Positions 4,082 through 30,272 of a stretch of 30,272 nucleotides of DNA are shown here, one piece after another (positions within the stretch are counted from its first letter, which is position 1; the number at the start of each line of letters is the position of its first letter). Below the pieces are notes generated by a model. It was given only the letters and a program-made list of their open reading frames with translations. It was not told the DNA's origin and ran no database searches. A program made the translations under genes and the position numbers. Origin of the DNA: Escherichia phage S164; the sequence record ON239131. One strand, given 5' to 3'.

Positions 4082-5155
4082 ATGCGCCAGGAAACCCGCT
4101 TTAAATTTAATGCCTACCTGTCCCGTGTTGCCGAACTGAACGGCATCGACGCCGGTGATGTGTCGAAAAAATTCACCGTTGAACCGTCGGTCACCCAGAC
4201 CCTGATGAACACCATGCAGGAGTCCTCTGATTTTCTGACCCGCATCAACATTGTGCCGGTCAGCGAAATGAAAGGGGAAAAAATTGGTATTGGTGTCACC
4301 GGCTCCATCGCCAGCACCACCGACACCGCCGGTGGCACCGAGCGTCAGCCGAAGGACTTCTCGAAGCTGGCGTCCAGTAAGTACGAATGCGACCAGATTA
4401 ACTTCGATTTTTATATCCGCTACAAAACGCTGGACCTGTGGGCGCGTTATCAGGATTTCCAGCTCCGTGTCCGTAACGCCATTATCAAACGTCAGTCCCT
4501 TGATTTAATCATGGCCGGTTTTAACGGCGTGAAGCGTGCCGAAACCTCTGACCGCAGCAGCAATCCGATGCTGCAGGATGTGGCGGTCGGCTGGCTGCAG
4601 AAATACCGCAATGAAGCCCCGGCGCGCGTGATGAGCAAGGTTACTGACGAGGAAGGTCACACCACCTCTGAGGTCATCCGCGTGGGTAAGGGCGGTGATT
4701 ATGCCAGCCTCGATGCACTGGTGATGGATGCGACCAACAACCTGATTGAGCCGTGGTATCAGGAAGACCCTGACCTTGTGGTGATTGTGGGGCGTCAGTT
4801 ACTGGCGGACAAGTATTTCCCCATCGTTAACAAGGAGCAGGACAACAGCGAAATGCTGGCCGCTGACGTCATCATCAGCCAGAAACGCATCGGTAACCTG
4901 CCGGCGGTACGCGTCCCGTACTTCCCGGCGGATGCGATGCTCATCACGAAGCTGGAAAACCTGTCCATCTACTACATGGATGACAGCCATCGCCGCGTGA
5001 TTGAGGAAAACCCGAAACTCGACCGCGTGGAGAACTACGAGTCAATGAACATTGATTACGTGGTGGAAGACTACGCCGCCGGTTGTCTGGTGGAAAAAAT
5101 TAAGGTCGGTGACTTCTCCACACCGACTAAAGTGACCGCAGAGCCGGGAGCGTAA
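4082..5155 (+). CDS. N: Major capsid protein
   Basis: 357 aa, same length and position as P2 gpN. Confidence 0.9.
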   Translation: MRQETRFKFNAYLSRVAELNGIDAGDVSKKFTVEPSVTQTLMNTMQESSDFLTRINIVPVSEMKGEKIGIGVTGSIASTTDTAGGTERQPKDFSKLASSKYECDQINFDFYIRYKTLDLWARYQDFQLRVRNAIIKRQSLDLIMAGFNGVKRAETSDRSSNPMLQDVAVGWLQKYRNEAPARVMSKVTDEEGHTTSEVIRVGKGGDYASLDALVMDATNNLIEPWYQEDPDLVVIVGRQLLADKYFPIVNKEQDNSEMLAADVIISQKRIGNLPAVRVPYFPADAMLITKLENLSIYYMDDSHRRVIEENPKLDRVENYESMNIDYVVEDYAAGCLVEKIKVGDFSTPTKVTAEPGA

Positions 5156-13779: not shown

Positions 13780-14023
13780 TATCAATTAATATCGGTTCGC
13801 CGTTCTCATCGACGGCGAGCATTTTCCCAGCCGGTATTTCTGTTGCGGTAAAAAACCAGTTATCATCCGGCAGTTCTACGGCCCCTTCAGTGCTATGAAT
13901 GCCGGGGATAACTTCATTAAGTGTCTCAGGATTAAAAAGGCGCATAGCGAGCACTCCAATAAAAACCGTCAGCGGATGTTGTTCCATCAGATCGTAATAC
14001 AAGAAAAGTAGCTTTTGTTGCAT
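13760..14023 (-). CDS. Alternative tail-fibre assembly chaperone, N-terminal domain only (U'-like fragment)
   Basis: 87-aa minus-strand ORF; ...AGKMLAVDENGEPILIDIMQSEA resembles the N-terminal domain of Tfa/U chaperones but lacks the conserved C-terminal domain; 3' end overlaps the G 3' end; 5' start uncertain because it overlaps the next ORF by 92 nt. Confidence 0.45.
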   Translation of the reverse strand: MQQKLLFLYYDLMEQHPLTVFIGVLAMRLFNPETLNEVIPGIHSTEGAVELPDDNWFFTATEIPAGKMLAVDENGEPILIDIMQSEA

Positions 14024-14369
14024 CAGTTAAATCAGTTATGACCATCGGTACCCTGACCTTATAAGGGGTTGCTGATGACAATAACAGCGGAGTGGTAGTG
14101 ATAACCTGTGCAGGAGCAGGCAGAGAAATCGGATAATAAACCGCAGCATTTCCCGATATGTTAGCCACAGCATTTCCCCACACCTCTATAGTGCCATCGC
14201 TCCAGATTCGGTATTTACCATTCGCATTCGAGCCTGTTTTAGTCACCACGGCACATTTATCTGTATCGGTATTAACGTTACCAATCAGTGCCAATTTTCC
14301 ACTGGTATTTCCCGCTTCTGCTAAACGAACGTTTATGAAAATGCAGAGATAACGGGTAACTGGCATCAT
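13932..14369 (-). CDS. Alternative tail-fibre C-terminal receptor-binding tip (Sv'-like), not fused to H in this orientation
   Basis: 145-aa minus-strand ORF; ...GKYRIWSDGTIEVWG...FYWSARYAPF parallels the C-terminal tip of H; a stop lies 4 codons upstream of its ATG; region is AT-richer than the core genome. Confidence 0.55.
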   Translation of the reverse strand: MMPVTRYLCIFINVRLAEAGNTSGKLALIGNVNTDTDKCAVVTKTGSNANGKYRIWSDGTIEVWGNAVANISGNAAVYYPISLPAPAQVITTTPLLLSSATPYKVRVPMVITDLTDATKATFLVLRSDGTTSADGFYWSARYAPF

Positions 14370-14396
14370 CTCCGGTTTTTATTCAGGGGGATGCTC

Positions 14397-14990
14397 ATGC
14401 TTATTGGCTATGTACGCGTGTCAACAAATGACCAGAACACGGAATTGCAGCGTAACGCGCTGGAGTGCGCGGGATGTGAGCGGATTTTTGAGGACAAAAT
14501 CAGCGGCACGAAGTCCGACCGACCGGGACTGAAAAAACTGCTCAGAACATTATCAGCAGGTGACACTCTGGTAGTCTGGAAGCTGGACAGGCTGGGGCGT
14601 AGTATGCGGCATCTGGTCATTCTGGTTGAGGAACTGCGCGAACGCGGCGTTAATTTTCGCAGCCTGACAGATGCTATTGATACCAGCACGCCGATGGGGC
14701 GTTTTTTCTTTCATGTGATGGGTGCCCTGGCTGAAATGGAGCGAGAACTCATTGTCGAGCGGACACGCGCCGGACTGGAAGCGGCCAGAGCTAAAGGTCG
14801 TATTGGTGGCAGACGTCCGAAACTCACCGCGAGTGAGTGGGAGCAGGCCGGGCGGTTGCTGGCTGCAGGGGAATCACGTCAACGCGTGGCACTGATTTTT
14901 GATATTGGCCTGTCCACGCTCTATAAAAAATTCCCCGCCTCAGTGACAAAAAATAAATTGTGTCATCCCTTAGCCAACCGGGACAAATAG
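14397..14990 (+). CDS. Serine-recombinase DNA invertase (Hin/Gin/Cin/Pin family)
   Basis: N-terminus MLIGYVRVSTNDQNTELQRNAL... with catalytic Ser; GDTLVVWKLDRLGRS; MGRFFFHVMGALAEMERELIVERT; C-terminal HTH (GLSTLYKKF). ORF opens at 14391, but the Met at 14397 has better RBS spacing (AGGGGG). Confidence 0.9.
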   Translation: MLIGYVRVSTNDQNTELQRNALECAGCERIFEDKISGTKSDRPGLKKLLRTLSAGDTLVVWKLDRLGRSMRHLVILVEELRERGVNFRSLTDAIDTSTPMGRFFFHVMGALAEMERELIVERTRAGLEAARAKGRIGGRRPKLTASEWEQAGRLLAAGESRQRVALIFDIGLSTLYKKFPASVTKNKLCHPLANRDK

Positions 14991-25491: not shown

Positions 25492-27766
25492 AGCCTCCGG
25501 GCGTTTTGTCCCTCCGTCAGCATTTGCCGCAGGCACCGGTGAGACGTTTACCGGTGCTTATGCATGGAACGCGCCACGCGAGGCCGTCGGGCGCGAAAGA
25601 CCCCTTACACGTGACGAGATGCGTCAGGTGCAAGGTGTTTTATCCACGATTAATCGCCTGCCTTACTTTTTGCGCTCGCTGTTTACTTCACGCTATGACT
25701 ACATCCGGCGCAATAAAAGCCCGGTGCACGGGTTTTATTTCCTCACATCCACTTTTCAGCGCCGTTTATGGCCGCGTATTGAGCGCGTGAATCAGCGCCA
25801 TGAAATGAACACCGACGCGTCGTTGCTGTTTCTGGCAGAGCGTGACCATTATGCGCGTCTGCCGGGGATGAATGACAAGGAGCTGAAAAAGTTTGCCGCC
25901 CGTATCTCATCGCAGCTTTTCATGATGTATGAGGAACTCTGCGATGCATGGGTTGATGCACATGGCGAGAAAGAATCGCTGTTTACAGATGAGGCGCAGG
26001 CGCATCTGTATGGTCATGTTGCTGGCGCTGCACGTGCTTTCAATATTTCCCCTCTCTACTGGAAAAAATACCGTAAAGGACAGATGACCACGAGGCAGGC
26101 ATATTCTGCCATTGCCCGTCTGTTTAACGATGAGTGGTGGACTCATCAGCTTAAAGGCCAGCGTATGCGCTGGCATGAGGCGTTACTGATTGCTGTCGGG
26201 GAGGTCAATAAAGACCGTTCTCCTTATGCCAGTAAACATGCCATTCGTGATGTGCGTGCACGCCGCCAGGCAAATCTGGAATTTCTTAAATCGTGTGACC
26301 TCGAAAACAGGGAAACCGGCGAGCGCATCGATCTTATCAGTAAGGTGATGGGCAGTATTTCTAATCCTGAAATTCGCCGGATGGAGCTGATGAACACCAT
26401 CGCCGGTATTGAGCGTTACGCCGCCGCAGAGGGTGATGTGGGGATGTTTATCACTCTGACCGCGCCGTCAAAGTATCACCCGACACGTCAGGTCGGAAAA
26501 GGCGAAAGTAAAACCGTCCAGCTAAATCACGGCTGGAATGATGAGGCATTTAATCCAAAGGATGCGCAGCGTTATCTCTGCCGCATCTGGAGCCTGATGC
26601 GCACGGCATTCAAGGATAATGATTTACAGGTCTACGGTTTGCGAGTCGTCGAGCCACACCACGACGGAACGCCGCACTGGCATATGATGCTTTTTTGTAA
26701 TCCACGCCAGCGTAACCAGATTATCGAAATCATGCGTCGCTATGCGCTCAAAGAGGATGGTGACGAAAGAGGAGCCGCGCGAAACCGTTTTCAGGCAAAA
26801 CACCTTAACCGGGGCGGTGCTGCGGGATATATCGCGAAATACATCTCAAAAAACATCGATGGCTATGCACTGGATGGTCAGCTCGATAACGATACCGGCA
26901 GGCCGCTGAAAGACACTGCCGCGGCTGTTACCGCATGGGCGTCAACGTGGCGCATTCCGCAATTTAAAACGGTTGGCCTGCCGACAATGGGGGCTTACCG
27001 TGAACTACGCAAATTGCCTCGCGGCGTCAGCATTGCTGATGAGTTTGACGAACGCGTCGAGGCTGCACGCGCTGCCGCAGACAGTGGTGATTTTGCGTTG
27101 TATATCAGCGCGCAGGGTGGGGCAAATGTTCCGCGCGATTGTCAGACTGTCAGGGTTGCCCGTAGTCCGTCGGATGAAGTTAACGAGTACGAGGAAGAAG
27201 TCGAGAGAGTGGTCGGCATTTACGCGCCGCATCTCGGCGCGCGTCATATTCATATCACCAGAACGACGGACTGGCGCATTGTTCCGAAAGTGCCGGTCGT
27301 TGAGCCTTTGACTTTAAAAAGCGGCATCGCCGCGCCTCGGAGTCCTGTCAATAACTGTGGAAAGCTCACCGGTGGTGATACTTCGTTACCGGCTCCCACA
27401 CCTTCTGAGCACGCCGCAGCAGTGCTAAATCTGGTTGATGACGGTGTTATCGAATGGAATGACCCGGAGGTTGTGAGGACGCTCAGGGGTGCATTAAAAC
27501 ACGGCCTGAAAACACCAAATCGTCAGCAAAGAAACGGAAGCCCGTTAAAACCACATGAAATAGCACCGTCGGCCAGACTGACCCGGTCGGAACGATTGCA
27601 AATTACCCGTATCCGCGTTGACCTCGCTCAGAACGGTATCAGGCCGCAACGATGGGAGCTTGAGGCGCTGGCGCGTGGCGCGACAGTAAATTATGACGGG
27701 AAAAAATTCACGTATCCGGTCGCTGATGAGTGGTCGGGATTCTCAACAGTAATGGAGTGGACATGA
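25481..27766 (+). CDS. A: Rolling-circle replication initiation protein
   Basis: ORF 25439-27766; start at MAVKASGRF gives 761 aa, the length of P2 gpA; translationally coupled to orf83. Confidence 0.85.
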   Translation: MAVKASGRFVPPSAFAAGTGETFTGAYAWNAPREAVGRERPLTRDEMRQVQGVLSTINRLPYFLRSLFTSRYDYIRRNKSPVHGFYFLTSTFQRRLWPRIERVNQRHEMNTDASLLFLAERDHYARLPGMNDKELKKFAARISSQLFMMYEELCDAWVDAHGEKESLFTDEAQAHLYGHVAGAARAFNISPLYWKKYRKGQMTTRQAYSAIARLFNDEWWTHQLKGQRMRWHEALLIAVGEVNKDRSPYASKHAIRDVRARRQANLEFLKSCDLENRETGERIDLISKVMGSISNPEIRRMELMNTIAGIERYAAAEGDVGMFITLTAPSKYHPTRQVGKGESKTVQLNHGWNDEAFNPKDAQRYLCRIWSLMRTAFKDNDLQVYGLRVVEPHHDGTPHWHMMLFCNPRQRNQIIEIMRRYALKEDGDERGAARNRFQAKHLNRGGAAGYIAKYISKNIDGYALDGQLDNDTGRPLKDTAAAVTAWASTWRIPQFKTVGLPTMGAYRELRKLPRGVSIADEFDERVEAARAAADSGDFALYISAQGGANVPRDCQTVRVARSPSDEVNEYEEEVERVVGIYAPHLGARHIHITRTTDWRIVPKVPVVEPLTLKSGIAAPRSPVNNCGKLTGGDTSLPAPTPSEHAAAVLNLVDDGVIEWNDPEVVRTLRGALKHGLKTPNRQQRNGSPLKPHEIAPSARLTRSERLQITRIRVDLAQNGIRPQRWELEALARGATVNYDGKKFTYPVADEWSGFSTVMEWT

Positions 27767-28218
27767 TGGCAAAAATTCACGAGGTAAAGCTGCACGCAAA
27801 ATATTTCGACCTTGTGCTGGAAGGAAAGAAACGCGCAGAGTTTCGGAAAAATGACCGTAATTATGAGCGCGGGGACACGTTGATTTTGCATGAATGGGGG
27901 CAGGGTGTGTATACGGGGCGAAAGGTTGAAGCCCGGATAACAGATGTTACTGACCTGTCAGACTGGCTGGAAGATTATGTCTTGCTAAGTATTGAGCTGC
28001 TTAATACAGGCGCATATGAGATTGTGAACAGGAAAGAACTTAGTGAGCGTGGTCTGTTATTCAGAATTAATCATGAAATTATGCATAAGCTCGGCCTTGC
28101 TGTTATGTATGAACCAGAGACGGGAATGTCTGGCGGGGCAATGGTTGCCACGGATGGAGCATGGAACTATTCAGATGAACAGATGGAGCGTGCACAGCAA
28201 AACGGGTGGCTTGGATAA
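27763..28218 (+). CDS. orf91-position protein with a possible ASCH/PUA-like (DUF3850-type) N-terminal domain
   Basis: ATGA overlap with the A stop; N-terminus MMAKIHEVKLHAKYFDLVLEGKKRAEFRKNDRNYERGDTLILHEW resembles DUF3850/ASCH-like domains from memory; C-terminal half unrecognised. Confidence 0.55.
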   Translation: MMAKIHEVKLHAKYFDLVLEGKKRAEFRKNDRNYERGDTLILHEWGQGVYTGRKVEARITDVTDLSDWLEDYVLLSIELLNTGAYEIVNRKELSERGLLFRINHEIMHKLGLAVMYEPETGMSGGAMVATDGAWNYSDEQMERAQQNGWLG

Positions 28219-28424
28219 TGCACAGAATACCAGGCGAGATACCGCACCATAAAACTAAAAATATCAAGCTGATGGCTATTGTTCAGCGTTTACAGCGGAT
28301 TATGGTCAACGAAAATCTGACGCCCGATGAGCTAGTCGGGTGTGCCGAAATAGTCCGGGATAATTACGGGCGGTTTAACTATATCGGTCAGTCCAGAGTT
28401 GCGCCACCACCACGCAGACGATAG
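28218..28424 (+). CDS. Small hypothetical protein
   Basis: 68 aa from the internal Met of ORF 28206-28424; TAATG overlap with the preceding gene; GC content like the core genome; no motif recognised. Confidence 0.4.
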   Translation: MHRIPGEIPHHKTKNIKLMAIVQRLQRIMVNENLTPDELVGCAEIVRDNYGRFNYIGQSRVAPPPRRR

Positions 28425-28427
28425 ATA

Positions 28428-28468
28428 ACGCCGCCAGTCGTGAAACTTGTTTTCAGGGCTGGCGGCGT
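28428..28468 (+). other. Stem-loop (10-bp perfect stem ACGCCGCCAG / CTGGCGGCGT, 21-nt loop) overlapping the start of repeat copy A
   Basis: Perfect inverted repeat just downstream of the stop at 28424; no T-run follows, so a classical terminator is unlikely. Confidence 0.45.
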
Positions 28469-28495
28469 TGAACAACGAGTGAAGCGAGGCGTTAG
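28441..28495 (+). repeat. Copy A of a ~55-bp direct repeat preceding moron gene 1
   Basis: Ungapped 42/55 identity by hand alignment with 29413-29467 (TGAAACTTG...GGCGG.GTTGA.CAA.GAGT...GTTAG). Confidence 0.75.
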
Positions 28496-28653
28496 TTGAC
28501 ATTCATATTTTTACTGCGTTGGTGCTGTTTTTTGACGGTTGAAAGGAGTTATCTCGGAGAGCTAAAGCTAACAACTTACAAATATTCAAAAGTAAGCTTC
28601 CTGTTGCTAACATAAGGTCGATTTTTTATGTGGATGATGCAAAAAGGATAGCT

Positions 28654-29385
28654 ATGGATACTATAATCGCTTTTCTATCACTCGCTTTTTTTGTTGCTTT
28701 TTTCATCGGGTTAATCAAGCCATCACTGGTGCGAATGCCAAGCCGCAAACGTGCAAGTGCGGTTTATCTCGGAGGAGGTTTTGTATTGAGCATAATTGGT
28801 TCAATACTCTATCCAACAGAAAAAAGCCAGCCAGTTGCTAAAACTGAAACATCAACCGTTGTAGAACACCAAGTCCAAAAAACATTCGAATATGGTGAAA
28901 AAACACTCAAGGAATATCGGAGCGAGCCAAAGAAAACTCGACACGATATTGTGAATAGTTACATTGACTTTAAGAAAGTTCCAGTCACCGCATCAGATGC
29001 ATTTTATGCCTGCATGAGTGAGTATACATTTACCAAAGATGATGAGTTGAAACTCGGTGATGTTCTTGGGTGGTGCTTTAATGATTATGAAAATGACCCG
29101 AGTTCACTAAATAATAAAATCAATCTTGATACATTTCAGAGTAATTTTAGTGGTTGGGATGGTTCTTATCGTCCATTGGAAAAACTAATTAAAGATAATA
29201 TGAACGATGATTCATCTTATAAACATGTATCAACGGTATATCATTTAGTTTTGAATAAAGACCCGCACGCCATTGTGAAAACGACGTTTCGCGGCACTAA
29301 TGCTTATGGTGGCATGGTCAAACAGACTGTAGCAGCGCGAGTTGACGTGCGAACGGGTGAGATCGATTCAATACTCGACAATTAA
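28654..29385 (+). CDS. Moron gene 1: predicted membrane protein (two N-terminal transmembrane helices plus a ~180-aa C-terminal domain), unknown function
   Basis: ORF 28630-29385 opens on GTG; the ATG at 28654 has RBS AAAAAGGA. Hydrophobic helices IIAFLSLAFFVAFFIGLI and LGGGFVLSIIGSILY. AT-rich relative to the core genome. Occupies the P2 tin/old position. Confidence 0.7.
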   Translation: MDTIIAFLSLAFFVAFFIGLIKPSLVRMPSRKRASAVYLGGGFVLSIIGSILYPTEKSQPVAKTETSTVVEHQVQKTFEYGEKTLKEYRSEPKKTRHDIVNSYIDFKKVPVTASDAFYACMSEYTFTKDDELKLGDVLGWCFNDYENDPSSLNNKINLDTFQSNFSGWDGSYRPLEKLIKDNMNDDSSYKHVSTVYHLVLNKDPHAIVKTTFRGTNAYGGMVKQTVAARVDVRTGEIDSILDN

Positions 29386-29412
29386 ATAATATAGTGACAG
29401 CTCCGTCAGTGA

Positions 29413-29467
29413 TGAAACTTGCTTTTAGTCTTGGCGGGGTTGAGCAATGAGTCTTGCAAGGTGTTAG
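29413..29467 (+). repeat. Copy B of the ~55-bp direct repeat preceding moron gene 2
   Basis: See copy A; lies 28 bp after the stop of moron gene 1. Confidence 0.75.
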
Positions 29468-29507
29468 CATGCGTAGAATGGAAGCTGCTTGGACGTGGGG
29501 TATTCAT

Positions 29508-30125
29508 ATGAATTTAAAAATTTTCGGCATAATTGTCCTTTCTGCTTTGATGTTCGTTTTAGGTTTTTTTCTCGGTGGTTTTAATTGGGAATGGGCTGAT
29601 AAGAATTATGCAGGTGAGGTGGCGTTGTGGAGTATGTTAGGAGGGTGGTTATCCGCAATTGCAACTCTGTTTGCCGTGTTGGTTTCATTATATATGGCGT
29701 ATCAAGCTACTCAGAATGAGATTGAAAAAATCAGGGTTACTCATGGAGTAAGTATGAGTGTCACTCATGACAATGAGTTAAGTTGTAATCTCATTATTCA
29801 GAACTTGAGAAATATGAAAGTGAATATTACTGGTGTTTTTTTGTCTCTAGGTAAATCATCAGGTAAGTACTCTTTGGATAAAGTAATTGACAATTGTAAT
29901 ATAACGCTTTCATATAAAGGTGAAACAGAAAAGGTACAATTTGTAATCCATTCTGGGTATATTTGGTGGTCAATGTATAAATTATTCGATATGGATAAGA
30001 ACATAGGTTTTGAAAAGGGTAAGATCTTTATAACAACCAACCTCAATACATATGAATTTGATTTGCCAAAAGAATATTTAAGAGCTTTTGAGAAAGCTTA
30101 TTCGGAGTATCAGACAAAAAAATAA
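29508..30125 (+). CDS. Moron gene 2: predicted membrane protein (N-terminal transmembrane hairpin plus a ~140-aa C-terminal domain), unknown function
   Basis: ORF 29454-30125 opens on TTG; first ATG at 29469, but I prefer MNLKIFGIIV at 29508. Helices IFGIIVLSALMFVLGFFLGGF and LGGWLSAIATLFAVLVSLYMAY. Strongly AT-rich with A/T-rich codon usage; last gene before cos. Confidence 0.7.
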   Translation: MNLKIFGIIVLSALMFVLGFFLGGFNWEWADKNYAGEVALWSMLGGWLSAIATLFAVLVSLYMAYQATQNEIEKIRVTHGVSMSVTHDNELSCNLIIQNLRNMKVNITGVFLSLGKSSGKYSLDKVIDNCNITLSYKGETEKVQFVIHSGYIWWSMYKLFDMDKNIGFEKGKIFITTNLNTYEFDLPKEYLRAFEKAYSEYQTKK

Positions 30126-30254
30126 TGAGCTGCATGCAAAAGGTGCATGTTTTTGCATGTGCTAAGTTCACTGGTTTTGTGTATATCGCTTCAGATCTAG
30201 CGTGGTTCCGGGGAGGGCATGCAACTGCATTAAAACCGCTCCATGAAGCGGGCG

Positions 30255-30272
30255 GGCGAGGCGGGGAAAGCA
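30255..30272. other. cos: cos cohesive-end sequence (right copy, 18 of 19 nt)
   Basis: Exact repeat of window positions 1-18. Confidence 0.8.

Follow-up and report, generated by a model that had tools for sequence, protein, structure and literature searches.

P22 SieA, T4 Imm, and HK97 gp15 are superinfection-exclusion proteins of the inner membrane. Exclusion by SieA acts on DNA injection and is limited to P22 relatives (PMC10461980). In the gpA–gpQ hotspot of P2-like phages, about 40% of the tested cassettes provided defense, and 3 of 8 did so when old–tin is set aside (PMC9122126). The closest described relative of the locus analyzed here is orf97 of phage 186, the last gene ahead of cos in a LexA-repressed p95-tum-orf97 SOS operon. 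The depositors of the 186 record (U32222; protein AAC34191.1) noted for this gene that "expression from plasmid blocks 186 infection." This phenotype is a one-line GenBank annotation dating from the 1990s and refers to plasmid expression. Regarding the function of orf97, the accessible literature yielded nothing beyond citations of Brumby et al. 1996, and searches by accession and PHROG id gave no matches.

We analyzed a window of 30,272 nucleotides from Escherichia phage S164 (record ON239131), the genome of which is P2-like. In the 5' to 3' direction, gpA is followed by an orf91-like DUF3850/ASCH gene, an ORF of 68–72 amino acids, an AT-rich locus (28425–30253), a terminator-like hairpin, and the cos end (Table 1). 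The locus has the orf91 region on one side and cos on the other, as stated in a preliminary description of this DNA. The short ORF (72 amino acids as listed, 68 in PGAP) is the last conserved P2-type gene ahead of the hotspot and is spanned by a near-identical match to P2/Wphi. The window ends in GGCGAGGCGGGGAAAGCA, which we take to be the P2-type cohesive end; the portal gene comes next in prophages, consistent with this assignment. The GC content of 28425–30253 is 38.4% (0.384), compared with 0.536 in the remainder of the window and 0.527 in the whole genome, and is the minimum among all 1829-bp segments of the genome (median, 0.549; 5th percentile, 0.442). The AT-rich cassette of the preliminary description is therefore borne out. 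Its "otherwise GC-rich" backbone is slightly overstated, as the stretches at about 21–25 kb (0.42–0.49) and 13–14.5 kb (0.45) are also below average.

Table 1. Coordinates of the features at the cos-proximal end of the S164 window
Feature	Position	Strand	Basis or remark
Small backbone ORF	28206..28424	+	phrog_11386, E 6e-39; annotated in RefSeq prophages
Junction element, copy 1 (72 nt, non-coding; 17–19 bp hairpin at 28427–28469)	28424..28495	+	Direct repeat D1, inverted repeat I2
Candidate weak extended -10 promoter (TTCAAA, 17 nt, TGc TAACAT)	28585..28613	+	By eye only
Gene 1, Orf97 family, 243 amino acids	28654..29385	+	Homology, predicted structure
Junction element, copy 2 (74% identical to copy 1)	29396..29467	+	Direct repeat D1
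Gene 2, two-TM protein, 218 or 205 amino acids	29469 or 29508 to 30125	+	PGAP start versus homologue starts
Intrinsic-terminator-like hairpin (30132–30150) and T-run	30132..30155	+	Closes the unit just ahead of cos
Window end, GGCGAGGCGGGGAAAGCA, presumed cos end	30255..30272		Read from the sequence

The AT-rich locus holds two plus-strand ORFs (28630..29385 and 29454..30125), here called gene 1 and gene 2. In line with the preliminary description, which gave each protein N-terminal transmembrane helices, each product is predicted to begin with a pair of hydrophobic helices, followed by a soluble C-terminal region. Both ORFs are under purifying selection, with dN/dS of 0.06–0.28 (0.06–0.11 for gene 1 and 0.16–0.28 for gene 2, at saturated dS), and are real genes. 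Decaying foreign DNA without function would fit the strong compositional deviation and the fact that no library assigns a function to either gene. However, this reading is effectively refuted by the selection data, by the presence of both ORFs intact in at least 27 E. coli genomes at ≥99% identity, and by the predicted structures, which are confident or moderately confident. An orf91-region query matched 1585 of 5426 complete E. coli genomes, whereas orf97 was present in 88 and gene 2 in 29 of the E. coli genomes; in agreement with the preliminary description, the locus is thus variable cargo, not core, at the cos-proximal site already known as a P2 hotspot. It shares with the P2 tin/old cargo the genomic slot, the AT-rich moron character, and rapid swapping. 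In contrast to Old and Tin, with which they have no homology, the two S164 proteins are membrane proteins that lack enzymatic domains.

Pfam, NCBIfam, and PADLOC scans gave no matches for either protein, and no family of PADLOC-DB v2 (including the Old, Tin, PD-, HEC-, and retron types) was hit by either at E ≤ 1. The PHROG matches of both were to families of "unknown function." Profile sequence searches of the PDB gave nothing usable, the sole match being IL-10R at E 0.59, and structure searches of BFVD matched only about 70 residues, weakly, to small phage proteins (one of them a "lipoprotein" of a Gordonia phage), a result we judged uninformative. Homology of the two proteins to structural or lysis proteins was also looked for, and none was found.

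The best start of gene 1 is an ATG preceded by AGGA, and PGAP uses the same codon. The product aligns end to end with Orf97 of phage 186 (190 of 243 residues, 78% identity; BLASTP E 9e-152) and matches phrog_3403 with E 7.8e-144 over 243 of 243 profile positions. By homology, gene 1 is a member of the named Orf97 family, and Table S5A of Rousset et al. 2022 already contains the exact arrangement of the locus, with the genes entered as hypotheticals; the term "undescribed" of the preliminary description must accordingly be withdrawn. In the passages of Rousset et al. 2022 available to us, nothing places this arrangement among the tested cassettes.

Because the 78%-identical 186 protein is annotated as blocking 186 infection, a role of gene 1 in exclusion is plausible. 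To that extent the earlier proposal of an exclusion module stands, whereas for gene 2 it derives from position only. Over-expression of a membrane protein can block infection non-specifically. The two Orf97 proteins share their length of 243 residues, the slot between the replication region and cos, and the 72-nt element that follows the gene. The S164 locus differs from that of 186 in having no tum and no LexA box, in its P2-type backbone (orf91 and the small ORF), and in the second gene after orf97. Upstream of gene 1, no tum/DinI gene was found, the orf91-like DUF3850 gene and the small ORF lying there instead; no LexA box was matched in 28425–28653 at up to one mismatch, and the genome-wide count of such matches was that expected by chance. 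Membership in a tum/LexA operon is a trait of the 186 context, not of the Orf97 protein family. A promoter scan of 28425–28653 found no site and hence no strong promoter. The candidate promoter in Table 1 (8 of 12 hexamer matches plus TGn) is below the scan threshold. It is kept in four E. coli prophages, but this conservation carries little information because the four are themselves 96% identical overall.

In the predicted structure of gene 1, TM1 (residues 2–21), a basic cytoplasmic loop, TM2 (31–52), and a disordered linker (56–74) precede an HdeA/B-like helical domain (about 85–165) and an α/β domain (166–243). Among 51 homologues, the inter-TM loop contains on average 4.7 Lys/Arg and 0.02 Asp/Glu residues, and the only two cysteines, Cys120 and Cys141, are invariant (51/51). 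The protein is predicted, from the model and this charge pattern, to be anchored in the inner membrane with its soluble domains in the periplasm; the basic loop and the invariant cysteine pair fit a location of the soluble part in the oxidizing periplasm. Gene 1 resembles SieA, Imm, and gp15 in being small, prophage-encoded, and predicted to reside in the inner membrane, and its homologue, like SieA-type proteins, reportedly blocks the cognate phage type. No sequence relationship to these three proteins was detected, nor homology to the described Sie families in Pfam, NCBIfam, PADLOC, and PHROG. We know of no large structured periplasmic part in SieA, Imm, or gp15 like that predicted for Orf97.

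The best structural matches of the helical domain are the acid-stress chaperones HdeB and HdeA, and the domain has a predicted HdeA-type fold. This raises the alternative that Orf97 is not a defense protein but serves phage induction, the lytic cycle, or lysogen physiology, for example as a membrane-tethered HdeA/B-like chaperone or envelope-stress factor expressed in the SOS response, the block of 186 being a side effect of over-expression. Consistent with this, orf97 of 186-type phages is co-transcribed with the antirepressor gene tum from a LexA-repressed promoter. Moreover, the unnamed superfamily that includes the soluble region of gene 1 comprises about 2,900 clusters at 50% identity, and the majority of these are presumably not carried by phages. 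Ten longer relatives from this superfamily, scanned with Pfam, gave only a bPH domain and, at their N-termini, weak zinc-ribbon matches below the cutoff. In Photorhabdus, a homologue of orf97 lies away from the hotspot, its neighbors being host genes and a P2-type tail cluster. On the other hand, Orf97 does not belong to the HdeA family by sequence: gene 1 had no Pfam match to HdeA at E ≤ 1 and no PDB sequence match, identity to HdeA/HdeB is 6–16%, and Orf97 is membrane-tethered, has 243 residues, and carries an extra α/β domain. The fold match does not imply a chaperone function. In S164, orf97 is uncoupled from tum and LexA, and the gene is patchily distributed cargo that phages can do without, found in 88 of the 1585 E. 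coli genomes matching the orf91-region query, at a hotspot enriched for anti-phage genes. We consider this alternative quite unlikely.

Gene 2 is predicted to be an inner-membrane protein with two TM helices, unrelated to gene 1. PGAP starts it at the upstream position in Table 1, whereas most homologues start at the equivalent of the downstream ATG. In the 205-residue numbering, TM1 (3–25), an acidic loop, and TM2 (35 to about 65) precede a predicted β-sandwich (about 75–205). It matches phrog_16957 (E 1.1e-99), with full-length homology including the two-TM hairpin, and a profile search collected 84 clusters. The family is restricted to P2/186-like prophages of Enterobacterales. The model has a pLDDT of 75.7 (moderate confidence), and the β-sandwich is probably cytoplasmic, a topology weakly predicted from a weak charge bias. 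The likeness of gene 2 to ApaG and Ig-like β-sandwiches and to archaeal pilin-like proteins with a TM helix and a β-sandwich is generic (7–12% identity) and, given a moderately confident model, gives no functional inference.

One reading of gene 2 is a self-contained abortive-infection protein, in which the β-sandwich would sense a phage product and the TM hairpin would oligomerize and depolarize the membrane. The TM2 motif MLGGWxSxxATLxAV, with its small-xxx-small spacing, is invariant in 20 of 20 aligned sequences and the TM hairpin stays highly conserved, while the C-terminal domain, a non-catalytic β-sandwich binding fold in structure comparisons, diverges to 25–35% identity. Homologues of gene 2 always occupy the cargo slot adjoining cos, and TM proteins are common as suicide effectors in the systems of the hotspot (PMC9122126). 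Against these points stand the lack of homology to PADLOC models, the weakly predicted topology, and an architecture that fits an injection blocker or a non-defense protein equally well. We consider this specific mechanism unlikely. Our best guess, from position only, is the broader one that gene 2 provides a second exclusion or abortive-infection function.

The preliminary description treated the two genes as one system. They lie on one strand, with a single terminator at the end and no strong promoter between them in the sequence scan, and are probably co-transcribed as far as this terminator. In many P2/186-like prophages, orf97 is directly followed by a member of the gene 2 family, even where the latter has only 25–35% identity; this synteny is seen in Klebsiella, Enterobacter, E. 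coli AR_0081, A15, and 9W, and phages BIS20 and P24A7b, and could still reflect cooperation. An obligate two-component defense system, for example with Orf97 as a periplasmic sensor signaling to gene 2 as a membrane effector, is nevertheless very unlikely. Gene 2 homologues occur without orf97 in Serratia (gpA, genes for 374 and 179 amino acids, gene 2) and Citrobacter (gpA, gene 2). Conversely, orf97 stands alone in phage 186, where the annotation credits the block to this gene alone, and elsewhere among E. coli prophages it is followed by one of at least four unrelated genes. The two proteins also diverge in an uncoupled way: when one set of genome pairs is compared, Orf97 identity remains at about 79%, whereas that of gene 2 drops from 64% to 33%. 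Because each gene occurs without the other, the two are separable and not an obligate pair, and the claim of a two-gene system fails.

A conserved structured element further separates gene 1 from gene 2. On the left, the variable region is bounded by copy 1 of this 72-nt element, with the homology to P2/Wphi stopping at 28497; at copy 2, the homology to phage 186 stops at 29468. The element is conserved in 77 phage records. Its hairpin is 96.8% paired with compensatory changes in 6 of 17 pairs, and the copy 2 type is found directly 3' of orf97 in 186 and in Klebsiella, Enterobacter, and Serratia prophages. The element with its covarying 17-bp hairpin is thus a marker of cassette boundaries. 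Its simple reading as an intrinsic terminator was rejected because neither strand has a U-tract after the hairpin, and a link to cos was rejected because the copies are about 0.8 and 1.8 kb away from it. No Rfam family was found over 27700–30272 at E ≤ 1.

Here, we propose that the locus consists of two independent morons, gene 1 being an excluder of 186/P2-type phages at the envelope and gene 2 a separate function, a reading we moderately favor. The TM hairpin of gene 1 would lie in the inner membrane and display the disulfide-stabilized HdeA/B-like and α/β domains in the periplasm. By homology with 186 Orf97, the protein would most likely exclude superinfecting 186/P2-type phages; by analogy with P22 SieA, it may act at the envelope by hindering genome delivery across the periplasm and the inner membrane. 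We also count in favor of this reading that, of the prophage transcripts in Salmonella BTP5, the one expressed most strongly is that of tum, which there lies immediately upstream of orf97. Gene 2 sits in the variable slot that follows orf97 and probably acts alone. The locus is plausibly a largely ordinary phage-exclusion locus and not a new two-gene system.

A bolder combination, in which gene 2 is a new anti-phage family, the phage-borne members of the Orf97 superfamily are injection blockers, and the 72-nt hairpin is a functional boundary of the hotspot, is unlikely to hold as a whole. If true, the gene 2 family would be a single-protein, membrane-acting one with a TM hairpin effector and a hypervariable cytoplasmic β-sandwich sensor, swapped independently beside cos. 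Orf97 would be the first member with a phenotype in a very large, as yet unnamed superfamily of domains that lie in the periplasm. The hairpin would act as a 3'-end, processing, or attenuation signal, and maybe as a homology patch for cassette exchange.

The gpA–gpQ hotspot is well established as a source of anti-phage genes in P2-like phages, yet in about a fifth of P2-like elements every gene at this site lacks annotation. The AT-rich locus of S164 is a concrete, testable case. The Orf97 family can now be described as a predicted membrane-tethered periplasmic two-domain protein, which points to genome entry, and the gene 2 family is a reasonable candidate for an unrecognized exclusion or abortive-infection protein. 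The separability of the two genes keeps discovery pipelines from mis-filing the pair as a "system." Expression or exchange of cargo at this hotspot may in part be understood from the structured element that is conserved at the borders of the cassette.

The window (30,272 bp) is the whole genome of a P2-like phage (Peduovirus), linearized at cos, and phage pro483 and several P2 variants are ~97% identical to it over most of its length. As the preliminary description had stated, 28425–30253 is AT-rich (38.4% GC versus 53.6% in the remainder, the minimum among all same-size windows of the genome) and lies between the orf91 region and cos. Its two plus-strand ORFs encode proteins of 243 and ~205 aa (218 aa for gene 2 with the PGAP start), each with two hydrophobic N-terminal helices. 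The right-end region also occurs in E. coli chromosomes as prophage, where portal and terminase genes come after it. The hotspot is well known, and this arrangement is already listed as "DUF3850/ASCH + hypothetical x3" (PMC9122126). That the AT-rich region is non-functional DNA is contradicted by dN/dS values of 0.06–0.28 and by confident predicted folds. In the orf91-like protein (27730–28218), DUF3850/ASCH (E 7e-18) is joined to a C-terminal DUF7415 (E 4e-10); the protein belongs to the conserved backbone and does not count as cargo. RefSeq annotates a 53-aa CDS across cos in the prophage form (comparison locus L003, 6044–6205; equivalent to window 30243 onward). The ORF would be split in linear virion DNA; a comparable small CDS is present in phage 9W. 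Elsewhere in the genome, a 199-aa serine recombinase (14391–14990, +; Resolvase and HTH_7, E 8e-53) adjoins a tail-fibre C-terminal fragment on the opposite strand (13932–14369, −), whose match to Gp53-like_C is weak and under the Pfam cut-off (E 5e-4, 20.9 bits versus 24.9). Both lie between the tail-fibre assembly and sheath genes, the Z/fun site in P2, and 13932–14990 resembles a Gin/Cin-type invertible host-range segment.

Features of the right end, element copies in comparison loci from other genomes (L numbers, own coordinates), and residues of the gene 1 protein
Feature	Position	Remarks
gpA, orf91-like DUF3850/ASCH protein, small conserved ORF		Upstream of gene 1
Element copy 1	28424–28495	Precedes gene 1; 72-nt direct repeat
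Element copy 2	29396–29467	Precedes gene 2; 74% identical to copy 1
Terminator-like hairpin	30132–30150	Downstream of gene 2, then cos end
Element elsewhere	L002:3272–3340, L004:4893–4961, L009:4588–4656
Element elsewhere	L014:2272–2342, L026:4226–4302
Gene 1 TM1	2–21	Then short loop; AlphaFold2 model
Gene 1 TM2	31–52	AlphaFold2 model
Gene 1 disordered linker	56–74	AlphaFold2 model
Gene 1 helical domain	About 85–165	AlphaFold2 model
Gene 1 helix and four-stranded sheet	173–241	AlphaFold2 model

The best start of gene 1, also that of PGAP, is ATG 28654, which has AGGA 5 nt before it and yields a 243-aa protein. In a DNA search, the gene was 76% identical to orf97 of phage 186, and the protein is 78% identical to 186 Orf97 across all 243 residues. 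Gene 1, proposed earlier as part of a candidate undescribed system, is thus not undescribed. The 186 GenBank record places orf97 within the LexA-controlled p95-tum-orf97 "SOS operon" and states "expression from plasmid blocks 186 infection"; the primary paper is Brumby et al. 1996, as cited in PMC5322425. The blocking phenotype rests on the depositors' annotation. The family corresponds to phrog_3403 (unknown function), and no model matched the protein in Pfam, NCBIfam, and PADLOC scans. It is widespread, with 158 clusters at 90% identity across Enterobacterales prophages; 32 phage records contain it, that of Vibrio phage VHML among them. Gene 1 belongs closely to a named family with a reported phenotype.

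The AlphaFold2 model of gene 1, built with 51 homologues, has a mean pLDDT of 85.7 (~95 over the soluble part). In the family, the inter-TM loop has on average 4.7 Lys/Arg, and acidic residues are practically absent from it. Because of this basic loop, the positive-inside rule predicts that it is cytoplasmic and that the C-terminal domains are periplasmic. Cys120 and Cys141, the sole cysteines, are located on neighbouring helices; all 51 Orf97 sequences have both, and such a pair makes sense in the periplasm. An exhaustive HMM search (E ≤ 1e-3) placed the soluble region in a very large unnamed superfamily of 2,938 clusters at 50% identity. Many members share just residues 160–242 or 75–242, with different N-termini, and a Pfam scan of ten longer relatives gave no informative domain.

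Gene 2 ends at 30125, and its start is ambiguous. The PGAP start is 29469; the start assumed in the preliminary description, equivalent to 29508 (205 aa), is that of most homologues. The 13-aa N-terminal extension (MRRMEAAWTWGIH-like; window 29469–29507) is kept in E. coli and Salmonella alleles with its own Shine–Dalgarno sequence; in Klebsiella and Citrobacter alleles, the first residue is the MNxK methionine. The family (phrog_16957, unknown function) is uncharacterized: a single-sequence search found 23 clusters and a profile search 84, all from Enterobacterales and all named "hypothetical". TM2 is almost invariant (EVALWSMLGGWLSxxATLxAVxVSLYMAYQ), and the C-terminal part is far more variable. 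In the model (pLDDT 75.7, ~85 in the C-terminal domain), the TM hairpin is followed by a β-sandwich. The N-terminus is basic and the inter-TM loop net acidic; the C-terminal domain is net basic and lacks a conserved Cys pair among the family sequences compared. From these features, both termini (N-in/C-in) and the sandwich are predicted, with moderate confidence, to be cytoplasmic.

The two genes had been proposed as one candidate module. They are often together, yet each is also found without the other, which contradicts an obligate two-gene system. Directly after orf97, a member of the gene 2 family is present in 186-type prophages of Klebsiella and Enterobacter together with E. coli A15, in phages BIS20 and P24A7b, and in P2-type E. 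coli prophages, among them the AR_0081 and 9W variants (confirmed by HMM, E 4e-52 and 2.5e-19). Phage 186 has orf97 without gene 2; in a Serratia prophage, the gene after orf97 is an unrelated one of 322 aa; and cos-adjoining gene 2 homologues without orf97 occur in Serratia (A, 374 aa, 179 aa, gene 2) and Citrobacter (A, gene 2). Among 5426 complete E. coli genomes, 1585 matched the orf91-region query, 88 had orf97, and 29 had the window's gene 2. In others, the post-orf97 gene was an AR_0081-type variant (seven genomes), a 9W-type variant (six), an unrelated 260-aa protein (six), or another unrelated protein (224, 429, or 198 aa); an FRG-domain gene comes after the 198-aa one. Across the same genome pairs, Orf97 stays at ~79% identity while gene 2 falls from 64% to 33%. 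The simplest reading is orf97 plus a variable slot, that is, two independent modules. In E. coli E94 (L035, 2945–4692), an IS5 transposase lies between orf97 and an AR_0081-type variant, whose annotated product lacks the first approximately 15 residues (part of TM1). Enterobacter loci L009–L013 have an extra 85-aa ORF (4720–4977) between the post-orf97 element and the gene 2 homologue; this ORF lacks TM helices and matched no family. In Photorhabdus (L027/L028, 3501–4250), an Orf97 homologue about 53% identical lies away from cos, beside ogr/D at the opposite end of the P2-type tail cluster, with the host genes uvrC and pgsA on its other side; the locus may be a tailocin-like remnant still bearing orf97.

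The element is non-coding and is kept in 77 P2/186-like phage records from Escherichia, Salmonella, Klebsiella, Yersinia, and Erwinia. It follows a small backbone ORF in P2-type genomes, where it forms the left border of the variable region, and directly follows orf97 in 186-type genomes. Homology of the window to P2 and Wphi ends at 28497 (the end of copy 1), that to 186 at 29468 (the end of copy 2), and that to the P2-type orf97 carriers P22H4 and P24A7b inside the orf97 3′ end (29327–29375). Because of these end points, the window looks recombinant: a crossover inside orf97 would have joined a P2-type left part to a 186-type right part (orf97 3′ end, element, gene 2, cos). The 17-bp element hairpin is 96.8% paired over 11 versions, with compensatory changes at 6 of the 17 pairs; 0 to 2 of 500 shuffles reached the observed values, and slid controls were 30–52% paired. 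Several positions are G-U on the plus strand, which favours folding of the sense transcript as RNA. A canonical terminator was rejected, since no U-tract follows the hairpin; Rfam gave no match.

In 186, orf97 belongs to the LexA-controlled tum operon, whereas a search of the window found neither a tum gene nor a LexA box upstream of gene 1. A consensus promoter scan of 28425–28653 found nothing; a candidate extended −10, sub-threshold and picked by eye, lies at 28585–28613. The unit ends at the terminator-like hairpin. In the Salmonella 186-type prophage BTP5, no prophage transcript is more abundant than that of tum, which lies just upstream of orf97. Orf97 may alternatively serve a non-defence role, in SOS/induction physiology or as an envelope chaperone. 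The exclusion role suggested earlier is plausible for gene 1 in view of the annotated block by plasmid-expressed 186 Orf97; an obligate joint module is contradicted by the separability of the genes. We propose that the two genes are independent morons, of which gene 1 would most likely exclude related phages. Since its structured domains are predicted to face the periplasm, it would interfere with genome delivery through the envelope; we infer this block at genome delivery, and likewise the timing of expression. Gene 2 may encode another exclusion protein or a sensor–effector for abortive infection that acts as a single protein, because its conserved TM hairpin and fast-diverging, non-catalytic, putatively cytoplasmic domain fit either role. 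Three points are new: the periplasmic architecture predicted for Orf97, how large its domain superfamily is, and the boundary hairpin with its covariation.
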